In this document: positions 4,832 through 59,492 of the stretch, piece by piece
How the letters are laid out: every line of letters starts with the position of its first letter
Numbering within the stretch: the stretch's first letter is position 1
From: Chloroflexia bacterium
GTDB lineage: Bacteria; Chloroflexota; Chloroflexia; Thermomicrobiales; UBA6265
DNA: 64,000 bases
NCBI GenBank assembly: GCA_043427975.1
Contig: JBHWTK010000067.1
Location: 16,523 to 80,522 of the forward strand
Reading direction: 5' to 3'
Program-made: the position numbers and the translations under genes
Notes under the pieces: generated by a model
What the model was told of the DNA's origin: nothing
Database searches by the model: none
What the model saw: the letters and a program-made list of their open reading frames with translations, nothing else

Positions 4832-6295
4832 TCAGCGAGCCACTGCACCCTTGAGCGAATCTGGCGCCGGGATGTGGACATCGACCTTCTTGATGTACTT
4901 CTCAACAAGGTCCGCTCGGCCTGCCACGCCAAGTTCGCGCATTACCAGCTCGAAACGAGGCTGCAATTCGGCGTAGATAGCCTGCTTTGTTTCATCCGGC
5001 AAGCTCCACATTTCCTTCTTGAACGGGCCGAAGCCGTTCTTACGGGTCTTGTAGTAGAACTGCACATCGCTCATGCCCTCCTTGCGCTCCGATGCATGCG
5101 CTTCGGAAAGGTGGGCGTACACAGCGTCCCTCAGTTCGGCGGGGAAGTGTTCGCTATCGTAGTAGGCGTTCTGGTAGGCGGTGGCGAGGTGGACTTCCAC
5201 CGCGTCCACTTCTGCAAACTTACCAAACGCCTCTTCGGGCAGGGTGCTGGCACCATGCTGTACCGCGCCGCCCATGCCGTACTTCTTCGCCGCCTGGCTT
5301 AGCTTGCCGAGCGTCTCGAAATCGACCGCGACATCCGCAATGGAACCATCCGGCAACACCACGCCACCGTGGCTGGTGCCTGTTTGCACGCTGATTTTGC
5401 TCACAGGGATCAAGTTTTCGCCCAGCTTGGCCAGTTCTTCAGCATACCCTTCGTAGAAGGCATCCAGATCCTCAACGGTGCTGTTGTCGTTGCCGATCTC
5501 ACCTATTTCCGCGCCCACGGAGATCGTGAAGCCTTCCGGCTCATGTTGCCGGATAGCGGCAGTGAGTTCCGCCGTGTGGCGGCTGTTGAGCGCCTGCTGC
5601 TCCTTGAGGGTGGGTTTGGAAAGATCGACCAGCGTGCTGCAATCGATATCGATATTGCCGTAGCCGGCAGCGATGGCCGCGATCGCATGCTTGCGCACTG
5701 CTTCGATTTCGGCCTCAGGATCGGCTTCGTACTTCTTGCGGTTGGCCTGGTAATGGTCGCCTTGCACCATCACCGGACCCTCCCAGCCGTACTTCACCGC
5801 TGCGGCGAAGATGCTGGTAGCGTATTCAGAAGGCGACTGGTTCGTGTATCCATTTTCCGACTTCGCAAGCTCGAACAGCATTTGCTTGGTACCGGTGGCC
5901 TGGGCCGCCCGGAAAATGGTGCCGGCAAACTCCATCACATCACCACGGACATTGATCGCCGGTGTGGTGATGTTATGGTACTCGCCGCGCGCGGAGGCCA
6001 TATACAGGTCCTGGATCGACGCAGGGAACGCACCGGTAGCAACAGCAATGCGTCGAACCAGCCAGCGGGCCGCTTGCTGCGGATCGCCCTCGCCGAAGGC
6101 ACTCGTCCAGGCGAGTTGCTCTATCAGGTCGGACCGCACGGCATCGAGATCGAGAATTTCGATGTCGTCGCCGGTCACCCGTACGACGTCTTCCAGCGCG
6201 CCAACCAGCGACTCCATAGATTGGTGAATCGTTCGGGTCATGTACTGTCGAACCTTTCTCCAGGCATCATCGCCTGCTCTCTCCGGGGCACTCAT
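4832..6295 (-). CDS. Class II fructose/tagatose-bisphosphate aldolase family protein (long form)
   Basis: 487-aa ORF with class II aldolase hallmarks: VMVQGDH, GNIDIDCS, VQTGTSHGG, AVQHGASTLP. Confidence 0.8.
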   Translation of the reverse strand: MSAPERAGDDAWRKVRQYMTRTIHQSMESLVGALEDVVRVTGDDIEILDLDAVRSDLIEQLAWTSAFGEGDPQQAARWLVRRIAVATGAFPASIQDLYMASARGEYHNITTPAINVRGDVMEFAGTIFRAAQATGTKQMLFELAKSENGYTNQSPSEYATSIFAAAVKYGWEGPVMVQGDHYQANRKKYEADPEAEIEAVRKHAIAAIAAGYGNIDIDCSTLVDLSKPTLKEQQALNSRHTAELTAAIRQHEPEGFTISVGAEIGEIGNDNSTVEDLDAFYEGYAEELAKLGENLIPVSKISVQTGTSHGGVVLPDGSIADVAVDFETLGKLSQAAKKYGMGGAVQHGASTLPEEAFGKFAEVDAVEVHLATAYQNAYYDSEHFPAELRDAVYAHLSEAHASERKEGMSDVQFYYKTRKNGFGPFKKEMWSLPDETKQAIYAELQPRFELVMRELGVAGRADLVEKYIKKVDVHIPAPDSLKGAVAR

Positions 6296-6368
6296 GCCAG
6301 CTATGGCATGATGGCCGCAATATCCTTACCAAAGCATGGTACCGCACAGGTATTGCAGAAACGTGTCA

Positions 6369-6411
6369 GGAAAACAGCACATGCCCCGGATGTCGAAACA
6401 CCCGGGGCATG
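6369..6411 (-). terminator. Intrinsic terminator after the cupredoxin gene
   Basis: Minus-strand RNA has a 10-bp stem CAUGCCCCGG/CCGGGGCAUG followed by GCUGUUUUCC, about 20 nt after the stop at 6430. Confidence 0.6.
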
Positions 6412-6429
6412 CACCACTCGTTCTATCCG

Positions 6430-8820
6430 TTATTTGACGGTAAACGTGCCCACCATGCCGCTCTGCTTGTGGCCCGGTACCGAGCAATAGAACTCGACCG
6501 ATGTACCAGACTCGGCATCGTCGGGAATCACCACATCACCGGTCTGGTCATTGTTCAGGAGTTCGGTAGCAATACCCCACTCATCCACAACCAGGTCGTG
6601 CTGGGCAAATCCCACGTTGTGCAGCGTTACGGTTTGACCAGGCGAAACCTCAACTTCATTCGGGCTGAAGCTGAAGTCATCATGCGCCTCGATCGTGATC
6701 GCTTCGCCCGATCCGGAATCCTCGCCGCTGCCAGTCGCCGATGGCGATGACTGCGGGGATGCAACCGGGGTTGCGGATCCACCAGGCGCCACGATGGTGA
6801 TCTTGCCGACCATCCCCTGGTTCTGGGCTTCGGTCAGGTTCGACTTGAACTCGATCGTCTTGCCGACCTCCGCATCCTCAGGGACGGTGAACTCGCCAAA
6901 GCTGCCGTTGGGCACGCTCTTGATCATGGGCGTGAGGGCGTTTTCGTCCCACTCCTCTGAAGTAAGGCCCATCGACATGCCGGTTTCGTTCTGGAAGGTG
7001 ATCACACCACCCGGGGCAATCTCGAACTCGGCAGGCTGGAACTCCCACTGGGTACCAACTACGGTAACAGCCTGCGGCGTGTTCTCCGTGCCACCCGTTT
7101 CAGAACCGGAACCCGCCTCGCCGGCCGCCGCCGTGGCCTCGCCTTCGGCAGCCGGAGCCGCGGCAGACGAGCCGCCCTCAACGACGGTGAAGGTACCAAC
7201 CATGCCGCTCTGCTTGTGGCCCGGCACGGAGCAGTAGAACTCCACCGAGGTACCGACTTCTGCGTCGTCCGGAATGACCACGTCACCAGTCTGGTCGTTG
7301 TTGAGCAACTCGGTGGCAATACCCCATTCGTCCACAACCAGGTCATGCTGGGCAAAACCGACATTGTGGAGGGTCACGGTTTGACCCGGGGCTACCTCAA
7401 CCTCGTTCGGGCTGAAGCTAAAGTCGTCGTGCGCCTCGATCATGATCGCTTCGCCGGAGCCACTCCCGGCGGCGGCGGGAGCCTCTTCTTCGGCAGCAGC
7501 GGTCGCTTCGTCCTCGCCTTCTTCAGCCGGAGCTGCAGCCGAAGAACCACCTTCAACAACCGTAAAGGTGCCTTCCATGCCGCTCTGGCGGTGGCCAGGA
7601 ACCGAGCAGTAGAAGGTGACGGAACTACCGACTTCGGCATCCTCGGGGATCACCACATCGCCGGTCTGCTCGTTGTTCAGGAGTTCGGTAGCGATGCCCC
7701 ATTCATCAACCACGAGGTCGTGCTGGGCAAAGCCCTTGTTATGCAGGGTGACCGTCTGGCCTGGAGCCACTTCAACTTCGTTCGGACTGAAGCTGAAGTC
7801 ATCGTGCGCTTCGATGGTGATTGGCTCGCTGGAGCCGCTACCAGCGGCCGCAGGAGCTTCTTCCTCTGTAGCAGCAGTCGCTTCGTCCTCAGTTTCACCT
7901 GCAGGAGCGGCCGCCGCAGAAGAGCCGGCCTCGACAACCGTAAAGGTGCCTTCCATGCCGCTCTGGCGGTGACCGGGGACGGAGCAGTAGAAGGTAACGG
8001 AGCTACCGACTTCGGCATCCTCGGGGATCACCACATCACCAGTCTGCTCGTTATTGAGCAGCTCGGTCCTGATTCCCCACTCGTCTACGACGAGGTCGTG
8101 CTGGGCAAAGCCCTTGTTATGCAGTGTGACTGTCTGGCCGGGCGAAACCTCGACCTCGTTCGGGCTGAAGCTGAAATCATCATGTGCTTCGATCACGACG
8201 GCCTCAGCGGCACCACCGGCACTGCCTTCCTCGGCGGGAGCTTCCTCTTCAGCAGGGGCTTCCTCACCGGCTGGGGCTGCAGCCGCAGATGCCTCAACCA
8301 CCGTAAAGGTGCCTTCCATACCGCTCTGGCGGTGACCCGGGACGGAGCAGTAGAACGTTGCCGTGCTACCGATTTCCGCGTCTTCCGGGATGGTTATGTC
8401 GCCGGATTCTTCGCTGTTGAGCAGCTCTGTCGCGATTCCCCACTCGTCCACCACAAGGTCGTGCTGGGCGAAACCCTTGTTCTGGAGGGTAACCGTCTGG
8501 CCGGGCGAAACCTCGACCTCATTTGGCGTGAAACTGAAGTCGTCGTGCGCTTCAATCACAATCGCCTCGGCTGAAGCGGCACCGGTATCGCCACCACCGT
8601 CGCCTGATCCAGTTCCTTCAGTGGGCGTATCGGAGCCCTGTTGGGCACCGGGGGTGGAGGTGCGTGGGGCGATCGTTGGTGGTGCGCCCGGAACGTCCGG
8701 GATCTGGGTTGGATTAAGAGCCTCTTCGCTCAGCGGTTCGTTGCCACAGGCAACCAGTAACACGCTTGTTGCGGTTACCGATGTTACCGCCACAAATCGA
8801 CGGCGATTCATACGATTCAT
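6430..8820 (-). CDS. Tat-signal lipoprotein with six tandem cupredoxin modules (five with full type-1 copper ligand sets, one degenerate)
   Basis: Start reassigned to ATG 8820 (AGGAGG SD 10 nt upstream). Signal peptide MNRMNRRRFVAV...LLVAC has a twin-Arg motif plus lipobox L-V-A-C. Each module carries FAQH...FYCSVPGH(R/K)QSGM, giving His, Cys, His, Met ligands. Confidence 0.85.
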   Translation of the reverse strand: MNRMNRRRFVAVTSVTATSVLLVACGNEPLSEEALNPTQIPDVPGAPPTIAPRTSTPGAQQGSDTPTEGTGSGDGGGDTGAASAEAIVIEAHDDFSFTPNEVEVSPGQTVTLQNKGFAQHDLVVDEWGIATELLNSEESGDITIPEDAEIGSTATFYCSVPGHRQSGMEGTFTVVEASAAAAPAGEEAPAEEEAPAEEGSAGGAAEAVVIEAHDDFSFSPNEVEVSPGQTVTLHNKGFAQHDLVVDEWGIRTELLNNEQTGDVVIPEDAEVGSSVTFYCSVPGHRQSGMEGTFTVVEAGSSAAAAPAGETEDEATAATEEEAPAAAGSGSSEPITIEAHDDFSFSPNEVEVAPGQTVTLHNKGFAQHDLVVDEWGIATELLNNEQTGDVVIPEDAEVGSSVTFYCSVPGHRQSGMEGTFTVVEGGSSAAAPAEEGEDEATAAAEEEAPAAAGSGSGEAIMIEAHDDFSFSPNEVEVAPGQTVTLHNVGFAQHDLVVDEWGIATELLNNDQTGDVVIPDDAEVGTSVEFYCSVPGHKQSGMVGTFTVVEGGSSAAAPAAEGEATAAAGEAGSGSETGGTENTPQAVTVVGTQWEFQPAEFEIAPGGVITFQNETGMSMGLTSEEWDENALTPMIKSVPNGSFGEFTVPEDAEVGKTIEFKSNLTEAQNQGMVGKITIVAPGGSATPVASPQSSPSATGSGEDSGSGEAITIEAHDDFSFSPNEVEVSPGQTVTLHNVGFAQHDLVVDEWGIATELLNNDQTGDVVIPDDAESGTSVEFYCSVPGHKQSGMVGTFTVK
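6433..8571 (-). repeat. In-frame tandem array of ~93-aa cupredoxin modules separated by 27-33 aa Ala/Glu/Pro/Ser/Gly linkers
   Basis: Module coordinates: D1 8293-8571, D2 7930-8208, D3 7552-7830, D4 7177-7455, D5 (degenerate) 6790-7077, D6 6433-6708. D2~D3 and D4~D6 are nearly identical as protein. Confidence 0.9.
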
Positions 8821-8871
8821 ACCCACACATCCTCCTGGGCGATTTTGTAGCAGTTCGCGTTGTTGCACCGG

Positions 8872-8897
8872 AAAAAGCGCACCGACGAACGTCGTGC
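8872..8897 (-). promoter_or_regulatory. Stem-loop plus U-tract in the 5' leader of the cupredoxin gene
   Basis: Minus RNA reads GCACGAC-GUUC-GUCG(G)UGC followed by GCUUUUUCC. It lies between a TACAAT -10-like box (8914-8919) and the start codon. Confidence 0.3.
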
Positions 8898-8976
8898 ACA
8901 AGACACTGCAACTATTGTACCGTGCCCGCAGCAAAGGTAACCGCGGGCCAACGGGCCGATGTAAGGAAAATTACCT

Positions 8977-9795
8977 ATGACCGCCCTCCCCCATACACGA
9001 ATGCGAATACCGGTAGATCGTGACGGCACACACCTCGCCGTCACGATGTACGAGGGATCGGGTCCGCCGATGTTGCTGATTCATGGCATCACCAGCAGCA
9101 GTGCCGAGTTCAACGGCGTCATGCCCCGCCTCGTCGAGGTATGCCAGCCGATCACAATCGACCTGCGCGGCCACGGAGAGTCGGACAAGCCGGCTTCCGG
9201 CTACCACTATGACGATTACGTACGCGACCTGTCCGCGGTCATCGCGCACCTGGAGCTCAACCGGCCGCTTGTGCTAGGCCATAGCCTGGGCGGCATTGTG
9301 ACGCTTTTCTGGGCAGCCACCAACCCGGGAGTCGCCCGGGGCCTGGTCATCGAAGACTCCCCCTTGCGAAGCGGCGGCGAATTCCGCCAGGCATTCGATG
9401 GCTGGCTTGCCCTCAACGCCATGCCGGAAGACATGTTGCGAGCCTGGTATGCGGAGCGGAATCCCACCTGGAATGAAACACTCGTGGCCTCACGCTCGGA
9501 TGCCATGAACGCATGCGCCCGGTCAGCCATCCTTGAACTGAGGGATGCCTCAATGGCGAACCAGGGGCTCGATTCATCCGATACACTGGCACGGATTACC
9601 GAACCGGTGCTCTTCCTCCACGGGGATCCGAAGGCGGGTGGCATGGTGCATCCGGATGATGCCGCCACCTTGCCACAGCGGATTCCCAATGTGACGGTTC
9701 GCAGGATCGAGGGCGCGGGACATACGATTCACCGTTCCCACCCGGACGAGTGGCTGAGGCTGGTGCGCGATTTCGTGCTGATGCACCAGGACTAA
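8977..9795 (+). CDS. Alpha/beta-fold hydrolase
   Basis: 272-aa ORF with HG oxyanion motif LLIHGITSS, nucleophile elbow GHSLGG and C-terminal GAGHTIH. Confidence 0.85.
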   Translation: MTALPHTRMRIPVDRDGTHLAVTMYEGSGPPMLLIHGITSSSAEFNGVMPRLVEVCQPITIDLRGHGESDKPASGYHYDDYVRDLSAVIAHLELNRPLVLGHSLGGIVTLFWAATNPGVARGLVIEDSPLRSGGEFRQAFDGWLALNAMPEDMLRAWYAERNPTWNETLVASRSDAMNACARSAILELRDASMANQGLDSSDTLARITEPVLFLHGDPKAGGMVHPDDAATLPQRIPNVTVRRIEGAGHTIHRSHPDEWLRLVRDFVLMHQD

Positions 9796-48890: not shown

Positions 48891-50102
48891 CTAGCGACGG
48901 AGCGAATTAGCGAAGGTTGCAGCGGTATTCGTTACAAATATCACCATAGCCACTGCGCCAGCCAAACAGGGCCACACGATAACGTCGGGATCGAGCCGAC
49001 CGTACATTCGTAAACCCATAAATACCATGCCAAGCAGGCACGCAAGCGCCATAAGCACAACCTGCGGCATCCGCAATGCGGGCCAGCGCATTTCCTCCAC
49101 ATCGGCCAGTTGGGGCACATACCGATACCCGAAGCCGCTGATAAGCAACCCGGCGAAACCGAACAGGTTGGCGATCACGTGGGTGGTCCGCAGCCGGGCG
49201 CCTGCAGCCGGATCGATGGCAAACATCACACCGAGGCCAATGCCTGCCACCATAAAGAGCAGCGCGATTGCGATTCCAACGCGAACTGGCGCCGACAGTG
49301 GCCAGGCCACGGGCAGGATATTTACCGCCCAGGCAACCATGGCAATGGCCATGAGGATAGCCCCAAATCGGAACAGGATATCGGCATCCGTCGCCAGCGC
49401 CACTGCCATCGCCGGCAAGCCGGCGAGAAACGCGACCAGGTGTACGCCGATAAGCCGGAGATGCCGGAAGTCCCGCCCGCTCCATCGGCCGAGCATGTGG
49501 TAGCTGGTACCCGAGGCCATGGGAAAGAAGAACCCGAGTAACATCACGTGCGCCCACACCAGGTCCCACCGGCCCTGTGACGGCTGCCAGTAATGCAGCG
49601 CAACGCCCATCGCCGTGCCCACGACCACCAGCATGCCACTGAGCATGGTAAAGGGGATCGCCAGCCGGTCCACCTTCTGCTGCTGCGTTCGTTCCTGCCA
49701 CGGAATCCGCGGCGGACGCGCACCCGGACCGGTAAACAGCAGCATCAGGTTGAGCAGGAAGAGCCCTGCTCCCGCAAATGCGAGCCAGTGGCCCAGCTCG
49801 GTCAGGGCTGCGTTCCGCTGCCCGTAGCCAATGGCTGCCAGCCAGCCCCCGGCAATACCGGTAACCACCTGCAGGCCAACCAGTGGCAGGCTACGCCATG
49901 GTTTGCCCGAGTGCGCCGGCAGGGCCTGCACGTTCACGCCATAGATCATCACCGTGATGCCGCCAAGCACCGCCAGGTGAACGCTCCCGGTCCACCAGGC
50001 ACCGTGGGTTTGGCTGTAGCCGGCAAGGGCGAGCGCGACGCCCATGGCCAGTGGTGCCATAACCACGGCGAGCGCAATGATGGATCGTTGGGATACCCGC
50101 AT
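48891..50102 (-). CDS. Polytopic membrane protein, NnrS-like (two copies of an H-x4-G-x7-G-x6-(P/G)-x3-G motif)
   Basis: 403 aa, about 12 TM. HLAVLGGITVMIYGVNVQALPAHSG and HVMLLGFFFPMASGTSYHMLGRWSG match the spacing of the NnrS HEMLFGF...GFLLTAVPNWTG signature as I recall it. Confidence 0.5.
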   Translation of the reverse strand: MRVSQRSIIALAVVMAPLAMGVALALAGYSQTHGAWWTGSVHLAVLGGITVMIYGVNVQALPAHSGKPWRSLPLVGLQVVTGIAGGWLAAIGYGQRNAALTELGHWLAFAGAGLFLLNLMLLFTGPGARPPRIPWQERTQQQKVDRLAIPFTMLSGMLVVVGTAMGVALHYWQPSQGRWDLVWAHVMLLGFFFPMASGTSYHMLGRWSGRDFRHLRLIGVHLVAFLAGLPAMAVALATDADILFRFGAILMAIAMVAWAVNILPVAWPLSAPVRVGIAIALLFMVAGIGLGVMFAIDPAAGARLRTTHVIANLFGFAGLLISGFGYRYVPQLADVEEMRWPALRMPQVVLMALACLLGMVFMGLRMYGRLDPDVIVWPCLAGAVAMVIFVTNTAATFANSLRR

Positions 50103-51575: not shown

Positions 51576-52595
51576 TTACTCCTCAACAATCAGCACTGTC
51601 ACCATACCGAACATGCCGTGGTCGCTCTCGGCGTGGGAGAGGATGTGGCAGTGGTACGCCCACAGGCCCGGCTCGGTGCAATCCACAATCACGTCGAACC
51701 GCTGGCCGGGGGCGATATTCAGCGTATCGCACATGTACGGCTGCGGCAGGTTCCACCCGTCCTGCGCAATAACCAGCTGCGGCATGCCGTGCAGGTGCAT
51801 CGGGTGAATCATCAGGCCTTCGTTCATGTACCGCACGAGGATCTTCTCACCCACCTTGGCCGTAAGGGGCTGGGTAGACGGGAAGCTCTTGCCGTTGAGC
51901 GAGTAGCCGCCGATGGGGCCGTCATTCAGCACCATGATGTACTCGTGGTCGTATTCCGGCTTCTTGGTTTCGTCCTTCGGTTCGATGATGAACGCGCCGA
52001 GGAGACCCATGGTCACCTGCTTGGCGGCGTTGTGATGGCTGTGATACATGTGCGAACCGGCATTGCCCTCACGCGCCTCGAACTCGTAGGTGAACGTTTC
52101 ACCCGGCTTGATCGGCGGCTGGGTCAGGTACGGCACGCCGTCCATGGTGTACGGCAGCATCACGCCGTGCCAGTGCACCGCGGTGGATTCCGGCAGGTTG
52201 TTGGTGACGTTCACGCGAACCTTGTCGCCCTCGGTCACACGGATCGCCGGGCCAGGGGTGACGCCGTTGTAGCACCACGCCTCCACGCGCTTCTCAACGT
52301 CGAATTCCCAGTCGACCACGTCACAGGTGATATCGAACACCTTAACGTCGCCATCCATGGTGAATTCCAGGTCCTGGTTGCCCAGGCCCTCGGTTTCGGC
52401 CGGGAAGGCACGTACTCCGGCTTCGTGGTAGGCATCCATCTCGTCCGGGGTAACCTGCTGGCTCGAAAGACCTTCCATGCGGGCGTCCATCTCGCGAGCA
52501 GACCATGGAGAAAGGGTGGCACCGAATGCTCCGGCGCCAACGAGGCCAGCAAGGCCATTGAATCGACGACGGGAGACTTTGCTTTCCTGGGTCAC
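51576..52595 (-). CDS. Two-domain multicopper oxidase (small-laccase-like) with Tat signal
   Basis: 339 aa with SRRRFNGLAGLVGAGAFG signal. Copper motifs HWHG, HSHH, HPMHLHG and HCHILSHAE. Confidence 0.88.
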   Translation of the reverse strand: MTQESKVSRRRFNGLAGLVGAGAFGATLSPWSAREMDARMEGLSSQQVTPDEMDAYHEAGVRAFPAETEGLGNQDLEFTMDGDVKVFDITCDVVDWEFDVEKRVEAWCYNGVTPGPAIRVTEGDKVRVNVTNNLPESTAVHWHGVMLPYTMDGVPYLTQPPIKPGETFTYEFEAREGNAGSHMYHSHHNAAKQVTMGLLGAFIIEPKDETKKPEYDHEYIMVLNDGPIGGYSLNGKSFPSTQPLTAKVGEKILVRYMNEGLMIHPMHLHGMPQLVIAQDGWNLPQPYMCDTLNIAPGQRFDVIVDCTEPGLWAYHCHILSHAESDHGMFGMVTVLIVEE

Positions 52596-57260: not shown

Positions 57261-58718
57261 CTACGGCAGATCCACCCGATATACGCCGGTGTCGGTGACC
57301 AGGTACAGCATGTTCCCTTCGAACCACGCGTTCCAGACGTTGCTGGCAGCCGGCAGGTACCTGGTACCGGCGCGGTCGAAGCAGGTGAACTCCTTCAGCG
57401 TCACACAGGCGTAATCCGAATTGGACGCCACCGCCAGCGGACTCATTTCAGGCTGGCGAACCGGATCCGTTTCCAGCATCACCCAGCCATTGGCATCCAG
57501 CCACACCAGCGCCGAGGCCGTATGGCCATGCTGGCCCAACAGGCGCAGCAGGAACGGCGCGCTGTTCCAGGTGTAGGTCGCCATGGCGATGGAGCCATCG
57601 GACGCGACATTGATGCGGCTGGATTGATCGAGTGCCCGCTCCCACACCACGCTGCCATCCGCCGGGTTCACCACCACCAGTGTCGTGAGCGCTCCCGAGC
57701 CAACATAGGTATCGGCCGCAACCAGCAGCCCGGCCGGAACGCTGAACATCTGCATGCTCACCGGGTGGGCCTGCTGGAACGACGCCGGCATGGTGAACTG
57801 CCGTACAGATGCGCCAGTGGTGAGGTTCAGCACCTCAATAGAGCCATCCACTTGCCCCAGGTACAGCTCCTCGCCGATATGCATCAGCGCCGGAGGCTGC
57901 ACGTAATTGTCCTCCCGAGATGCATAGAGGTCATACCCGGCCTGCCAGCGCATTTCGCCGCTGCTGCCATCGATTGCAACCAGCTTGCCTCCCAGCACAA
58001 TCACAGCGGTATCGCCTGCCATCATCACGGTTTCCCATCCGTGGACGACGTCCCATTCGGCCAGGGAATTGGTCCAGAGTTCTTCTCCGGTGTCGATGTT
58101 GTAGGCAGCCATTTCCTCCAGGCCAAATAATGAATTTGGATCGTTGTCCTTTGGTTCGCTGTACGTGATACCGATGATGACATCGTCTCCAAACAGGATG
58201 TGCCACATCTCGGGCACCTCTTGTTGCCACTGGACCGCGCCGGATGCCGGGTCATACGAGACCAGGTACGGCTGATCCGAGCCGGACATCGACGTGACAG
58301 CGATAAGGTGGTCTTCGTACATGTGGACCTGGCCCGCTGTACCAACGCCGGGCAGCATCTCGGCTGTCAGGGTGACATCGGGGCCGGGTGTAGCGCTGGC
58401 ATCGGCTGGCAACGTCGCGACCGCCTGGCTCGCGTACTGCGGCTCCAGCACCCTGGGTGCAAGTTGCACGACAGAAGCGAGCGCGAGCGCGAACACCACC
58501 AGTGCGGCCGCTGCGATGAAGAGCGGGTGTCGCCTGTCCGGTGCCGTCGCGTTCACAGATCGTCCCGACGGCGAAGCACCAATGATCGGCTGCACCGGGA
58601 CCGGTTTCGCGGGTGCTTCTGCCGCCATCCGTCGTCGCATCCGCTCTGCGAACGCGCTATCTGGCTCCATGGCCGAATCGAATGCCCCGTGAAATTGACG
58701 GAAATCGGTATCGTTCAT
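57261..58718 (-). CDS. Putative anti-sigma factor: cytoplasmic N-terminus, one TM, extracytoplasmic PQQ-like beta-propeller
   Basis: ATGA overlap with the upstream ECF sigma gene. TM segment is LFIAAAALVVFALALASV. Repeated ...G.V.W... blades are typical of PQQ-like propeller repeats. Confidence 0.6.
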   Translation of the reverse strand: MNDTDFRQFHGAFDSAMEPDSAFAERMRRRMAAEAPAKPVPVQPIIGASPSGRSVNATAPDRRHPLFIAAAALVVFALALASVVQLAPRVLEPQYASQAVATLPADASATPGPDVTLTAEMLPGVGTAGQVHMYEDHLIAVTSMSGSDQPYLVSYDPASGAVQWQQEVPEMWHILFGDDVIIGITYSEPKDNDPNSLFGLEEMAAYNIDTGEELWTNSLAEWDVVHGWETVMMAGDTAVIVLGGKLVAIDGSSGEMRWQAGYDLYASREDNYVQPPALMHIGEELYLGQVDGSIEVLNLTTGASVRQFTMPASFQQAHPVSMQMFSVPAGLLVAADTYVGSGALTTLVVVNPADGSVVWERALDQSSRINVASDGSIAMATYTWNSAPFLLRLLGQHGHTASALVWLDANGWVMLETDPVRQPEMSPLAVASNSDYACVTLKEFTCFDRAGTRYLPAASNVWNAWFEGNMLYLVTDTGVYRVDLP

Positions 58719-59296
58719 CGGTGGTCTCCATTGCGCTGCAACCAGATCGATCGGAAGGCGTTACGGGCACGGGCAAGCAGCGACTGAGTCGCCGATTCCG
58801 AGAGGAAGAGCGCCGCTGCGACCGCGGCGACGTCGCATCCATCGAGGTATTTGAGGACGATCGCTGCGCGGTAGCGCGGGTTGAGCTCGGCCAGGGTCGC
58901 GATCACTTCCTCGCGGACAGGCAGGGATTCGAGGTCGAGATCGGGCAGGCCGGGTTGGACGCCGGGGTCATCGTCGTCCACGCGCCGGCCAAACGCGGAT
59001 CTCTCACGGGTTTGGCGGCGGTAGTGGTCGATGAGCCGGTTGCGGGAGATATGGAACAGCCAGCGCATGCGGTCATCCGCACCTTCGGGCGCTGCGCCAG
59101 ACCGCACGGCGGCCAGCATGGTGTCCTGCGTCAGGTCTTCTGCCAGGGCGCGATCACCGCCCACCCGTGGGTAGAAGTACCCGTAGATACGCGGGATCGC
59201 CTCGGCCAGCGCGGCGGTCGGCGCGTGGTGAGGCGACGATTCGGCTTTCTCCTTCGTGGGGTTCAATACGATCGTTCCCGGCGCAGCAAGCTCCAT
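58715..59296 (-). CDS. ECF-type RNA polymerase sigma-70 factor
   Basis: Start moved to ATG 59296 (AAGGAG SD). Region 2 (AEDLTQDTMLAAV...WLFHISRNRLIDHYR) and region 4 (LNPRYRAAIVLKYLDG...SESATQSLLARAR). Confidence 0.85.
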   Translation of the reverse strand: MELAAPGTIVLNPTKEKAESSPHHAPTAALAEAIPRIYGYFYPRVGGDRALAEDLTQDTMLAAVRSGAAPEGADDRMRWLFHISRNRLIDHYRRQTRERSAFGRRVDDDDPGVQPGLPDLDLESLPVREEVIATLAELNPRYRAAIVLKYLDGCDVAAVAAALFLSESATQSLLARARNAFRSIWLQRNGDHR

Positions 59297-59492
59297 ATGC
59301 AGGTCTCCTTGCAAAGTAGAACGAAGCCGCGTCAGAAATCTGTCGGTTGACCCCAAATACGCCAGGTACATGGCATATCCAGAAATCTGCTGTGATTAGT
59401 AACAGGCTGACAGCAGTTTATTCTGGTCCTGCGGTATGCTTCGGGCAGGAGATCGATAAATTGGCAGGGTAATAGATCGGGGAAGAAATCTG

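Follow-up and report, generated by a model that had tools for sequence, protein, structure and literature searches.

What use would a bacterium have for five blue-copper sites strung along a single protein chain? The question is raised by a gene on the minus strand of a 64,000-nt stretch of DNA from a Chloroflexia bacterium (contig JBHWTK010000067.1; below, "the window" means this whole stretch), which an earlier note, made from the sequence alone, had read as encoding a lipoprotein of six cupredoxin modules. The open reading frame (ORF) spans 6430..8934 when counted from its first TTG. The homologues have in common a Met start that corresponds to the ATG at 8820, 10 nt after the sequence AGGAGG, and translation from there gives a product of 796 amino acids (aa). 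We argue below that this protein is probably, though by no means surely, a blue-copper electron carrier with several heads and a lipid anchor that serves the aerobic respiratory chain, that is, a shuttle of the auracyanin/plastocyanin type in which the module has been amplified; we infer its copper binding, redox role, partners, lipidation and export route. Relatives are cited by number, with P for database proteins and L for the loci of relatives.

Six cupredoxin modules, five with type 1 copper ligands

Translation and alignment bore out six cupredoxin modules of ~93 aa each (Table 1). Five of them (modules 1-4 and 6) carry the motifs FAQH and YCSVPGH(R/K)QSGM. The earlier note had recognized five complete blue-copper ligand sets, and these are present, but its spacing was off by one residue: where it gave Cys-x3-His, all five type 1 (T1) modules have Cys-x4-His-x4-Met. 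The whole protein contains exactly six Cys residues, one in the lipobox and one in each T1 site. All four ligand positions (His, Cys, His, Met) were invariant across 12 relatives that are 36-75% identical.

Searches with the two Pfam hidden Markov models (HMMs) that the earlier note had proposed both scored above cut-off: Copper-bind (PF00127) reached 122.8 bits against a cut-off of 21.2 (E = 8.5e-36, in five stretches), and Cupredoxin_1 reached 76.7 bits against 27. By homology the modules match redox cupredoxins, with the ligand residues conserved. The ranked NCBIfam matches were to models of plastocyanin, halocyanin, azurin and CopI, and of these TIGR02656 (plastocyanin) alone exceeded its own cut-off, with 111.9 bits against 87.85, a score reached only when all five stretches are added together. 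Among solved structures, a T1 module was closest in sequence to the N-terminal tethered cupredoxin domains of Hyphomicrobium NirK (2dv6, E = 2.5e-9; 6tfd, E = 9.5e-9) and then, in order, to plastocyanins, a Bacillus Cupredoxin_1 protein and auracyanins. The auracyanin matches were partial (1ov8, E = 3.4e-4 over 45 residues; 2aan, E = 7.4e-4). The named solved relatives are all electron-transfer cupredoxins, the Bacillus protein being uncharacterised.

A full-length AlphaFold2 (AF2) model was built from an alignment of 12 sequences. In this model the five T1 modules had a pLDDT of 91-96 and module 5 a pLDDT of 71-90, each with 7-8 strands in agreement with the Greek-key beta-sandwich of cupredoxins; the signal, the tether and all linkers were below 50, and the pTM was 0.25. 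The structure prediction called for by the earlier note thus returned modules folded at high pLDDT on linkers predicted to be disordered. Given the low pTM and the low linker pLDDT, the modules would have no fixed arrangement, and the protein is best pictured as beads on a string, with the modules as independent heads and no packed wire. The linkers consist of nearly all Ala, Glu, Gly, Ser, Pro and Thr and have a net charge of -2 to -8. Their composition agreed with the Ala/Glu/Pro/Ser/Gly described before, but the length range of 27-33 aa did not hold, because the shortest linker has 26 aa. Each module has a net charge of -14 to -16, and the pI of the mature protein is about 4.05, compared with a median of 5.3 for the proteins of the window.

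Module 5 is only ~31% identical to the other modules. Met617 replaces the first ligand His (His1), Ser replaces the Cys and Ala replaces the second His (His2), and the axial Met670 is kept. The AF2 model of module 5 on its own had a pLDDT of 92 and a pTM of 0.82, and Foldseek gave TM-scores of 0.65-0.75 to plastocyanins and auracyanin. An orthologous T1-less module was found in 16 relatives, mostly in the penultimate position, and is 86-94% identical among close relatives. Across these modules the Ala at His2 and the Met at the axial position are invariant, the His1 position is always Met or His, and most have an extra Met two residues before the axial-position Met. A randomly decaying copy is ruled out by this conservation among relatives. 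Module 5 could possibly be a docking or spacer module, or could hold a Met-type Cu(I) site.

Selection on the repeated modules

The T1 modules of the protein are 86-97% identical to each other in protein and 70-84% in DNA, with third-position identity of 37-62%. Tandem Repeats Finder reported the corresponding DNA repeat with a 375-nt period, 3.8 copies and 76% matches. Comparisons of module pairs gave dN values of 0.02-0.14 and dS values from 1.0 to saturated (Nei-Gojobori), with dN/dS about 0.02-0.1 where it was estimable. Recent duplication, gene conversion or an assembly artefact as the source of the repeats was ruled out by the low DNA identity and by dS of about 1 or higher. That is, because dS ranged from about 1 to saturation and dN was low, we concluded that the copies are old and that each T1 module has been under long purifying selection. 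Selection of this sort is typical of core genes, and the multiplicity of modules is maintained and not transient. Ordinary purifying selection on old copies suffices to account for the DNA divergence of the modules; selection against recombinogenic DNA repeats could add to it.

The N-terminal modules within each family protein are 83-96% identical, and the last two or three modules in relatives are position-specific and conserved between proteins. When modules were classed as A, B, T1-less (d) or C type, the order was A-A-A-A-d-C in P0002 and P0003, and A-A-A-A-d-A in the window protein and in P0001. At the protein level, modules 6 and 4 of the window protein share 97% identity, and module 6 stands where relatives carry their C-type last module. 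In this lineage the C-type terminal module has been replaced by a copy of module 4.

A family of poly-cupredoxin lipoproteins

A search through 5.8 billion proteins brought up ~45 relatives with several modules, 450-915 aa long, from metagenome-assembled genomes (MAGs) of Thermomicrobiales. Where these are named at all, the names are "plastocyanin", "plastocyanin/azurin family copper-binding protein" or "cupredoxin domain-containing protein". The closest relative (P0001) is 87% identical and likewise 796 aa long. An HMM built from the window protein detected 3-7 modules per relative, many with all sites complete. Nearly all of the relatives share the signal MNR(x)NRRRF...LVAC. We define here an uncharacterised Thermomicrobiales family of poly-cupredoxin lipoproteins by four features: an RRxF-lipobox signal, the tether motif PT(Q/R/M)IPxVxGAPPT(L/I)AP, at least three modules on acidic linkers, and the locus. 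The window protein has all four and is a clear member.

HMMER, run with one module against 1.84 billion representatives, returned 3447 proteins at E<=1e-3. Modules were counted in 142 new sequences within the best 150 of these matches: 74 proteins had two modules, 20 had three, seven had four, four had five and two had six, and another two had eight (P0177, 1154 aa; P0185, a lipoprotein of 1166 aa). The few matches with source names were called "plastocyanin" or "uncharacterized cupredoxin-like copper-binding protein", and one cluster came from an Actinomycetota MAG. Strings of 3-8 T1 modules beyond the Thermomicrobiales family were P0177, P0185, P0189 and P0233/P0267 (Actinomycetota MAG), some of them with lipoprotein signals; further strings were seen at L011 9521-11197 (Solirubrobacteraceae) and L040 3366-5225 (Burkholderiales). 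These outside strings may be independent inventions of the same architecture. The poly-cupredoxin arrangement is recurrent in sequence space and unannotated as such. In the open-access literature and bioRxiv, the only sources searched, we looked for tandem, multi- or poly-cupredoxin proteins, for Thermomicrobia blue copper proteins and for Rieske/cupredoxin fusions, and came upon no account of such multi-module carriers. A tethered string of redox centres, which the earlier note had called unusual, is therefore unusual for the searchable literature but not among sequences.

Two single-module proteins bear on where the string came from. At the same locus in one relative (L022 690-1184) we found a 165-aa single-module lipoprotein cupredoxin, a distant relative, and in cultured Thermalbibacter longus (L034) a Tat-like (twin-arginine translocation) lipoprotein cupredoxin with one module adjoins a homologue of the deacetylase that lies near the window gene. 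With such single-module lipoproteins in these positions, the string is best seen as an amplified single-domain anchored carrier.

Links to the respiratory chain

Some database relatives open with a transmembrane helix and a cytochrome c that holds one haem (CxxCH at residue 56); one to three T1 modules come next. At L021 7127-10375, Pfam matches identified cytochrome b6 (PF00033), a subunit IV-like protein (PF00032) and a Rieske protein (PF00355), and directly after them comes the gene for such a cytochrome c-cupredoxin fusion. BLAST with the L021 proteins showed this gene order repeated at L013, L014, L016, L017 and L027; at L066 only the Rieske gene and the fusion were seen. These seven loci belong to Thermomicrobiales MAGs or to unclassified bacteria. 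Their fusions carry 1-2 T1 modules, and the database representatives P0048, P0151, P0166 and P0176 carry three. The cupredoxin heads of the fusions are 38-46% identical to the modules of the window protein. In Thermomicrobiales the electron-output subunit of complex III thus carries tethered cupredoxin heads, and this type of module is linked to the respiratory chain by fusion. A complex III with copper heads was also sought in the open-access literature and bioRxiv, and no description was found.

Published work on the phylum points in the same direction. In filamentous Chloroflexota, alternative complex III (ACIII) passes its electrons to auracyanin in the periplasm (PMC10873879). An auracyanin homologue has been suggested for electron transport in the non-photosynthetic Thermomicrobium roseum, from which outer-membrane genes are absent (PMC2615216).

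We propose that the protein would be exported, possibly by the Tat route, and acylated on Cys25, and that its flexible tether of ~59 aa would hold it on the outside of the cytoplasmic membrane, in a cell that probably has no outer membrane to retain soluble carriers. Five near-identical T1 copper modules and one copper-site-less module would hang there on acidic, disordered linkers of 26-33 aa. Each T1 module would bind one Cu, cycle between Cu(II) and Cu(I), take up one electron from a donor in the membrane and pass it to a terminal acceptor. The likeliest donor would be the cytochrome b6/Rieske complex, whose cytochrome c bears homologous cupredoxin heads in related genomes, and the likeliest acceptor a haem-copper oxidase, with copper enzymes also possible. 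Several heads on one anchor would offer a higher local concentration of carrier, a storage capacity of 5 electrons and a wider reach; by rough estimate, tether, linkers and modules together have a contour length of about 90 nm, and each linker coil measures ~5 nm. Because the ligand loops and His1 motifs are near-identical, the five T1 sites presumably are near-equal in potential. Like charges on modules and linkers would keep the chain extended and hinder contact between modules at low ionic strength. The high-capacity electron carrier or buffer imagined in the earlier note is compatible with these data and comes close to the multi-headed carrier described here.

Several observations weigh against a respiratory carrier. 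No respiratory complex adjoins the gene in the window or in the syntenic loci, so that the partners are deduced from other loci of other genomes. A simple benefit of dosage leaves the T1-less module, the distinct C-terminal modules of relatives and the tether motif unexplained. The very acidic surface (pI about 4.1) could equally fit a role away from the membrane surface. Among the searches made, no multi-module relative was named from a cultured organism. Finally, for export by the Tat route the conserved RRxF motif is the sole pointer.

Alternative explanations

The earlier note had also suggested a copper analogue of multihaem electron conduits. Electrons would then hop from module to module by intramolecular self-exchange, and the string would be an envelope-spanning relay, a flexible copper counterpart of such conduits, that joins the membrane to partners in or beyond a thick proteinaceous wall (Fe(II)/Mn(II) and wall-bound oxidases or dehydrogenases are candidates). 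Up to ~90 nm along the contour and a coil reach roughly estimated at tens of nm would suit this role, as would the relatives with up to 7-8 modules, the differentiated terminal modules of relatives (A, B, T1-less and C types), the related modules fused to PQQ beta-propeller proteins (P0081, P0094, P0102, P0115, P0117) and a Thermomicrobium seemingly without an outer membrane (PMC2615216). However, the model gave no fixed geometry (pTM 0.25, linker pLDDT below 50), and the near-identical ligand loops and His1 motifs at five sites imply that there is no potential gradient. The charge of the modules (-14 to -16) and the acidic linkers should disfavour encounter complexes at low ionic strength. 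Relatives have from 1 to 7 modules at the same locus, which argues against a structure sized to a defined envelope, and the distinct distal C-type module is replaced by an A-type copy in the window protein. Moreover, self-exchange in plastocyanin is slow, and electron transfer at physiological rates needs cofactors within about 14 A, distances that would be reachable in this protein only in transient encounters. Because of the like charges, the missing geometry and the variable number of modules at one locus, we ranked an ordered wire below the multi-headed carrier. An envelope-spanning relay is unlikely on this evidence, and the analogy with multihaem conduits found little support. We considered less likely still a flexible relay, a copper-based alternative to multihaem wires on disordered linkers, in which tether-enhanced self-exchange among five isopotential blue-copper centres over tens of nanometres would connect the cupredoxin heads of complex III with distant acceptors or donors across the wall, with the T1-less module and the tether motif as docking elements.

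Two further explanations keep the modules but change their partners or their purpose. The protein might supply electrons specifically to a copper enzyme that works on nitrogen or oxygen compounds, be it NirK, N2O reductase or some multicopper oxidase. In favour of this, Hyphomicrobium NirK (2dv6, 6tfd) provides the best solved matches with its fused cupredoxin domains, many weaker database matches are NirK proteins with the same fused module, and the window contains a gene for a two-domain multicopper oxidase (51576-52595, minus strand). That gene lies 43 kb off and is not syntenic in relatives, however, and neither the window nor the 10-kb flanks of relatives showed a nirK or nosZ gene. Conservation beside housekeeping genes across the order also suggests a core function and not an accessory one, so that we give a dedicated donor of this kind less credence than either form of relay. 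Copper handling, in which the protein would be a surface buffer, sequestration protein or chaperone and the T1 sites, perhaps with the Met-rich module 5, would store Cu or hand it on, drew on the top NCBIfam match by E-value, the CopI model NF051440 (E = 2.3e-36), and on the Met pattern of module 5 (Met or His at His1, an axial Met and mostly an extra Met), which recalls Met-rich Cu(I) sites. Yet the score to NF051440 was 125.2 bits against a cut-off of 280, and that to NF047895 was 40.7 against 200; with scores so far below the cut-offs, we rejected an identity as CopI or as a copper-resistance protein. There is no CopI-type His/Met-rich stretch and no HxH motif in the protein, no cop, cus or cso genes lie nearby, and the same type of module is fused to the cytochrome c of b6/Rieske operons, which points to electron transfer. 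T1 sites bind Cu tightly and are buried, and so make poor exchangeable buffers. With one buried Cu per 93-aa module, the copper buffer raised in the earlier note is unlikely, and we regard copper handling as a whole as the least probable of these explanations.

Comparison with known systems

The electron carrier that we favour has its closest functional parallels in the auracyanins. Auracyanin B has the same Cys-x4-His-x4-Met loop length. Like the window protein, auracyanins A and B (Chloroflexus, Roseiflexus) come from the same phylum, have an N-terminal membrane anchor with a flexible Gly/Pro/Ser/Thr tether and a T1 site with an axial Met, and are presumed to carry electrons between a quinol-oxidising complex and a terminal acceptor (PMC10873879, PMC2615216). 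They differ in having one domain of ~140 aa, compared with five T1 modules of ~93 aa and one T1-less module here, and the partner suggested by the context of relatives is a b6/Rieske complex and not ACIII. Membership in the auracyanin family fails on sequence relationship (the matches are weak and partial) and on domain number (six versus one). The three-domain NirK of Hyphomicrobium denitrificans (HdNIR) shares the motif AQHD...YCS(I/L)(A/P)GHRQAGM(E/Q)G and a tethered T1 module that donates electrons. In HdNIR, however, the module is packed on the catalytic NirK core, whereas the window protein has no catalytic domain and has repeated modules on disordered linkers.

With plastocyanin, pseudoazurin and amicyanin the protein shares the fold and ligand set matched by PF00127, and an acidic surface such as that of plant plastocyanin. 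Plastocyanin has a Cys-x2-His loop, compared with Cys-x4-His here, and the window protein is multi-module with a predicted lipid anchor. Because the loop differs in length and the TIGR02656 score is a sum over five stretches, we did not regard the protein as a plastocyanin in the strict sense; the database label is generic. By E-value the top Foldseek matches of the full-length model were ceruloplasmin, factors V/VIII, MnxG and three-domain NirK, with a TM-score of about 0.1 that reflects likeness per domain only. Ceruloplasmin, factor V/VIII and MnxG also have six cupredoxin folds per chain, but they are compact, with trinuclear clusters at domain interfaces, and the modules here are independent and joined by disordered linkers. 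Kinship with multicopper oxidases or ceruloplasmin was rejected: there is no HxH motif anywhere in the protein, the TM-score is ~0.1 and the pTM is 0.25.

Multihaem conduits (MtrA/MtrC, OmcS) likewise place many one-electron centres per polypeptide at the cell surface, a functional analogy only. Their haems are packed at fixed, short edge-to-edge distances in rigid wires; here there is no homology to them, and each centre has a globular module of its own, about 30 residues from the next, with no contact predicted between modules. Cells in which soluble carriers are not kept back by an outer membrane anchor their carrier instead. The anchored cytochromes c of monoderms (Bacillus c551/c550) and the cytochrome c-cupredoxin fusions resemble the window protein in this respect, but they have a haem cofactor or are part of complex III, and the window protein stands alone, with no catalytic partner; no haem motif (CxxCH) was found in family members.

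Blue-copper carriers are one-domain, one-electron shuttles. In this family 3-8 such domains are lined up on disordered linkers after a lipid anchor, in an arrangement kept by selection. Relative to the systems described, what appears to be new is a cupredoxin carrier made multivalent on disordered linkers. Together with the copper-headed complex III genes, the family suggests that Thermomicrobiales, which are common in soils and sludge, may run the high-potential end of respiration largely on tethered copper and not on soluble cytochromes. It offers a natural system for effects of tethering and multivalency on electron transfer between proteins, for carrier retention in cells without an outer membrane, and for the question whether flexible redox polymers relay charge. 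Expression of these small, modular proteins is probably easy, and they could be scaffolds for bio-electronic materials.

Signal peptide and tether

The N-terminus reads MNRMNRRRFVAVTSVTATSVLLVAC, in which an RRxF motif leads into a Ser-, Thr-, Val- and Ala-rich h-region and then the lipobox LVAC. Across the 12 relatives R6 and R7 are at least 90% conserved, and F9, L22, A24 and C25 are invariant. The twin-arginine region is N-R-R-R-F-V-A, with DRRKF or DRRTF in some relatives; divergent sub-families have Sec-type lipoprotein signals without RR. The lipobox [LVI][ASTVI][GAS]C is kept in all full-length family members. An NCBIfam scan of the N-terminal 58 aa at E<=10 gave two insignificant matches (LptM and MelC1) and no Tat-signal family. 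The Tat lipoprotein signal seen by the earlier note thus stands as far as RRxF and lipobox are concerned, with the Tat route itself suggested at the level of the motif.

The tether, variable elsewhere, carries a motif, LNPTQIPDVPGAPPTIAP, that begins 10 and ends 27 residues past the predicted lipidated Cys. Its consensus, (D/E)LxPT(Q/R/M)IPxVxGAPPT(L/I)AP, is near-invariant across the family, whereas the linkers between modules are not conserved. A degenerate form (EPTVTRI...NAP) occurs in the single-module orthologue at L022. Docking, glycosylation or sorting are possible roles.

Table 1. Features of the poly-cupredoxin gene and its product, in window coordinates
Feature	Position (nt)	Strand	Basis or remarks
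Poly-cupredoxin lipoprotein gene, 796 aa	6430..8820	-	Stop codon 6430-6432; ORF list, translation, homologue starts
AGGAGG, Shine-Dalgarno-like	8831..8836	-	Read from sequence; 10 nt upstream of ATG 8820
Signal peptide, aa 1-24 (predicted)	8749..8820	-	NRRRF + Ser/Thr/Val/Ala h-region
Lipobox L22-V23-A24-C25	8746-8757	-	Translation
Cys25 (predicted lipidated) + 59-aa Gly/Pro/Thr-rich tether	8572..8748	-	Composition; pLDDT <50
Tether motif LNPTQIPDVPGAPPTIAP, aa 35-52	8665-8718	-	Conserved across family
Module 1, T1 cupredoxin, aa 84-176	8293..8571	-	His120, Cys158, His163, Met168
Linker 1, 28 aa, Ala/Glu/Gly/Pro, net charge -7	8209..8292	-	Composition; pLDDT <50
Module 2, T1 cupredoxin, aa 205-297	7930..8208	-	His241, Cys279, His284, Met289
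Linker 2, 33 aa	7831..7929	-	Composition; pLDDT <50
Module 3, T1 cupredoxin, aa 331-423	7552..7830	-	His367, Cys405, His410, Met415
Linker 3, 32 aa	7456..7551	-	Composition; pLDDT <50
Module 4, T1 cupredoxin, aa 456-548	7177..7455	-	His492, Cys530, His535, Met540
Linker 4, 32 aa	7081..7176	-	Composition; pLDDT <50
Module 5, T1-less cupredoxin fold, aa 581-678	6787..7080	-	Met617/Ser/Ala/Met670 at ligand positions; alignments, AF2, Foldseek
Linker 5, 26 aa, Ser/Gly/Pro-rich	6709..6786	-	Composition; pLDDT <50
Module 6, T1 cupredoxin, aa 705-796	6433..6708	-	His741, Cys779, His784, Met789
Intrinsic-terminator-like hairpin, 18-bp stem, then UGUUUU	6368..6415	-	RNA folding; ~15 nt past stop codon

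Locus and transcription unit

On one side of the gene lie an alpha/beta hydrolase gene (8977-9795, plus strand) and then a polysaccharide deacetylase gene; its other flank has an atypical class II aldolase-like gene (4832-6295, minus strand), two hypothetical genes, hrcA, grpE and dnaK. The flanks and the window as a whole contain housekeeping genes, including dnaK-grpE-hrcA and those for the aldolase-like protein, the hydrolase, the deacetylase, MurJ and WecG, and L001 is alike. The same gene order surrounds the homologues in L001 (where the protein is 48% identical), L002-L005, L010, L022 and L025, loci that come from Thermomicrobiales or Chloroflexota MAGs of the GTDB species set. This shared order marks a vertically inherited chromosomal locus.

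The upstream neighbour is divergently oriented. The terminator-like hairpin downstream had a folding energy of -33.2 kcal/mol (z = -6.0), and 0 of 200 shuffled sequences were as stable; a scan gave a shorter version of it. A scan of 6150-9150 for sigma-70 promoters found no site. The gene looks like a single-gene transcription unit, and a unit of its own, with a divergent gene upstream and a strong hairpin downstream, suits an abundant stand-alone carrier.

Other genes in the window

The aldolase-like gene lies directly downstream of the cupredoxin gene in all syntenic loci, with 53-79% identity. Its 487-aa product matched the Pfam class II fructose-bisphosphate aldolase family only weakly, with 52 bits, and all NCBIfam models were far below cut-off; it appears to belong to an atypical, long aldolase-like family.

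The multicopper oxidase gene at 51576-52595 encodes 339 aa with Cu-oxidase_3 and Cu-oxidase_2 domains and scored below every NCBIfam equivalog cut-off (CopA, CueO, laccase, NirK). The product could be a small laccase or a NirK-like enzyme. As a linked partner of the cupredoxin string it was rejected, being too distant and not syntenic. A gene for a PQQ-like beta-propeller protein (57261-58718, minus strand) adjoins an ECF sigma factor gene (58715-59371, minus strand); in the five fusion proteins named above, the same type of propeller bears a C-terminal cupredoxin module related to those studied here. No NCBIfam match was obtained for the product of 48891-50102 (minus strand), a basic membrane protein of 403 aa (pI 10.8) whose C-terminal third matches the start of the COX1 profile with 28.7 bits against a cut-off of 34.8.

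At 47-1153 on the plus strand, two ORFs gave matches to Pfam PF10712 ("NAD-specific glutamate dehydrogenase"). As judged by synteny with L001 and by BLAST, dnaK (HSP70, 94% identical) lies on the minus strand at ~1-1600, and the PF10712 matches are therefore antisense translations of dnaK, a known artefact of that family.

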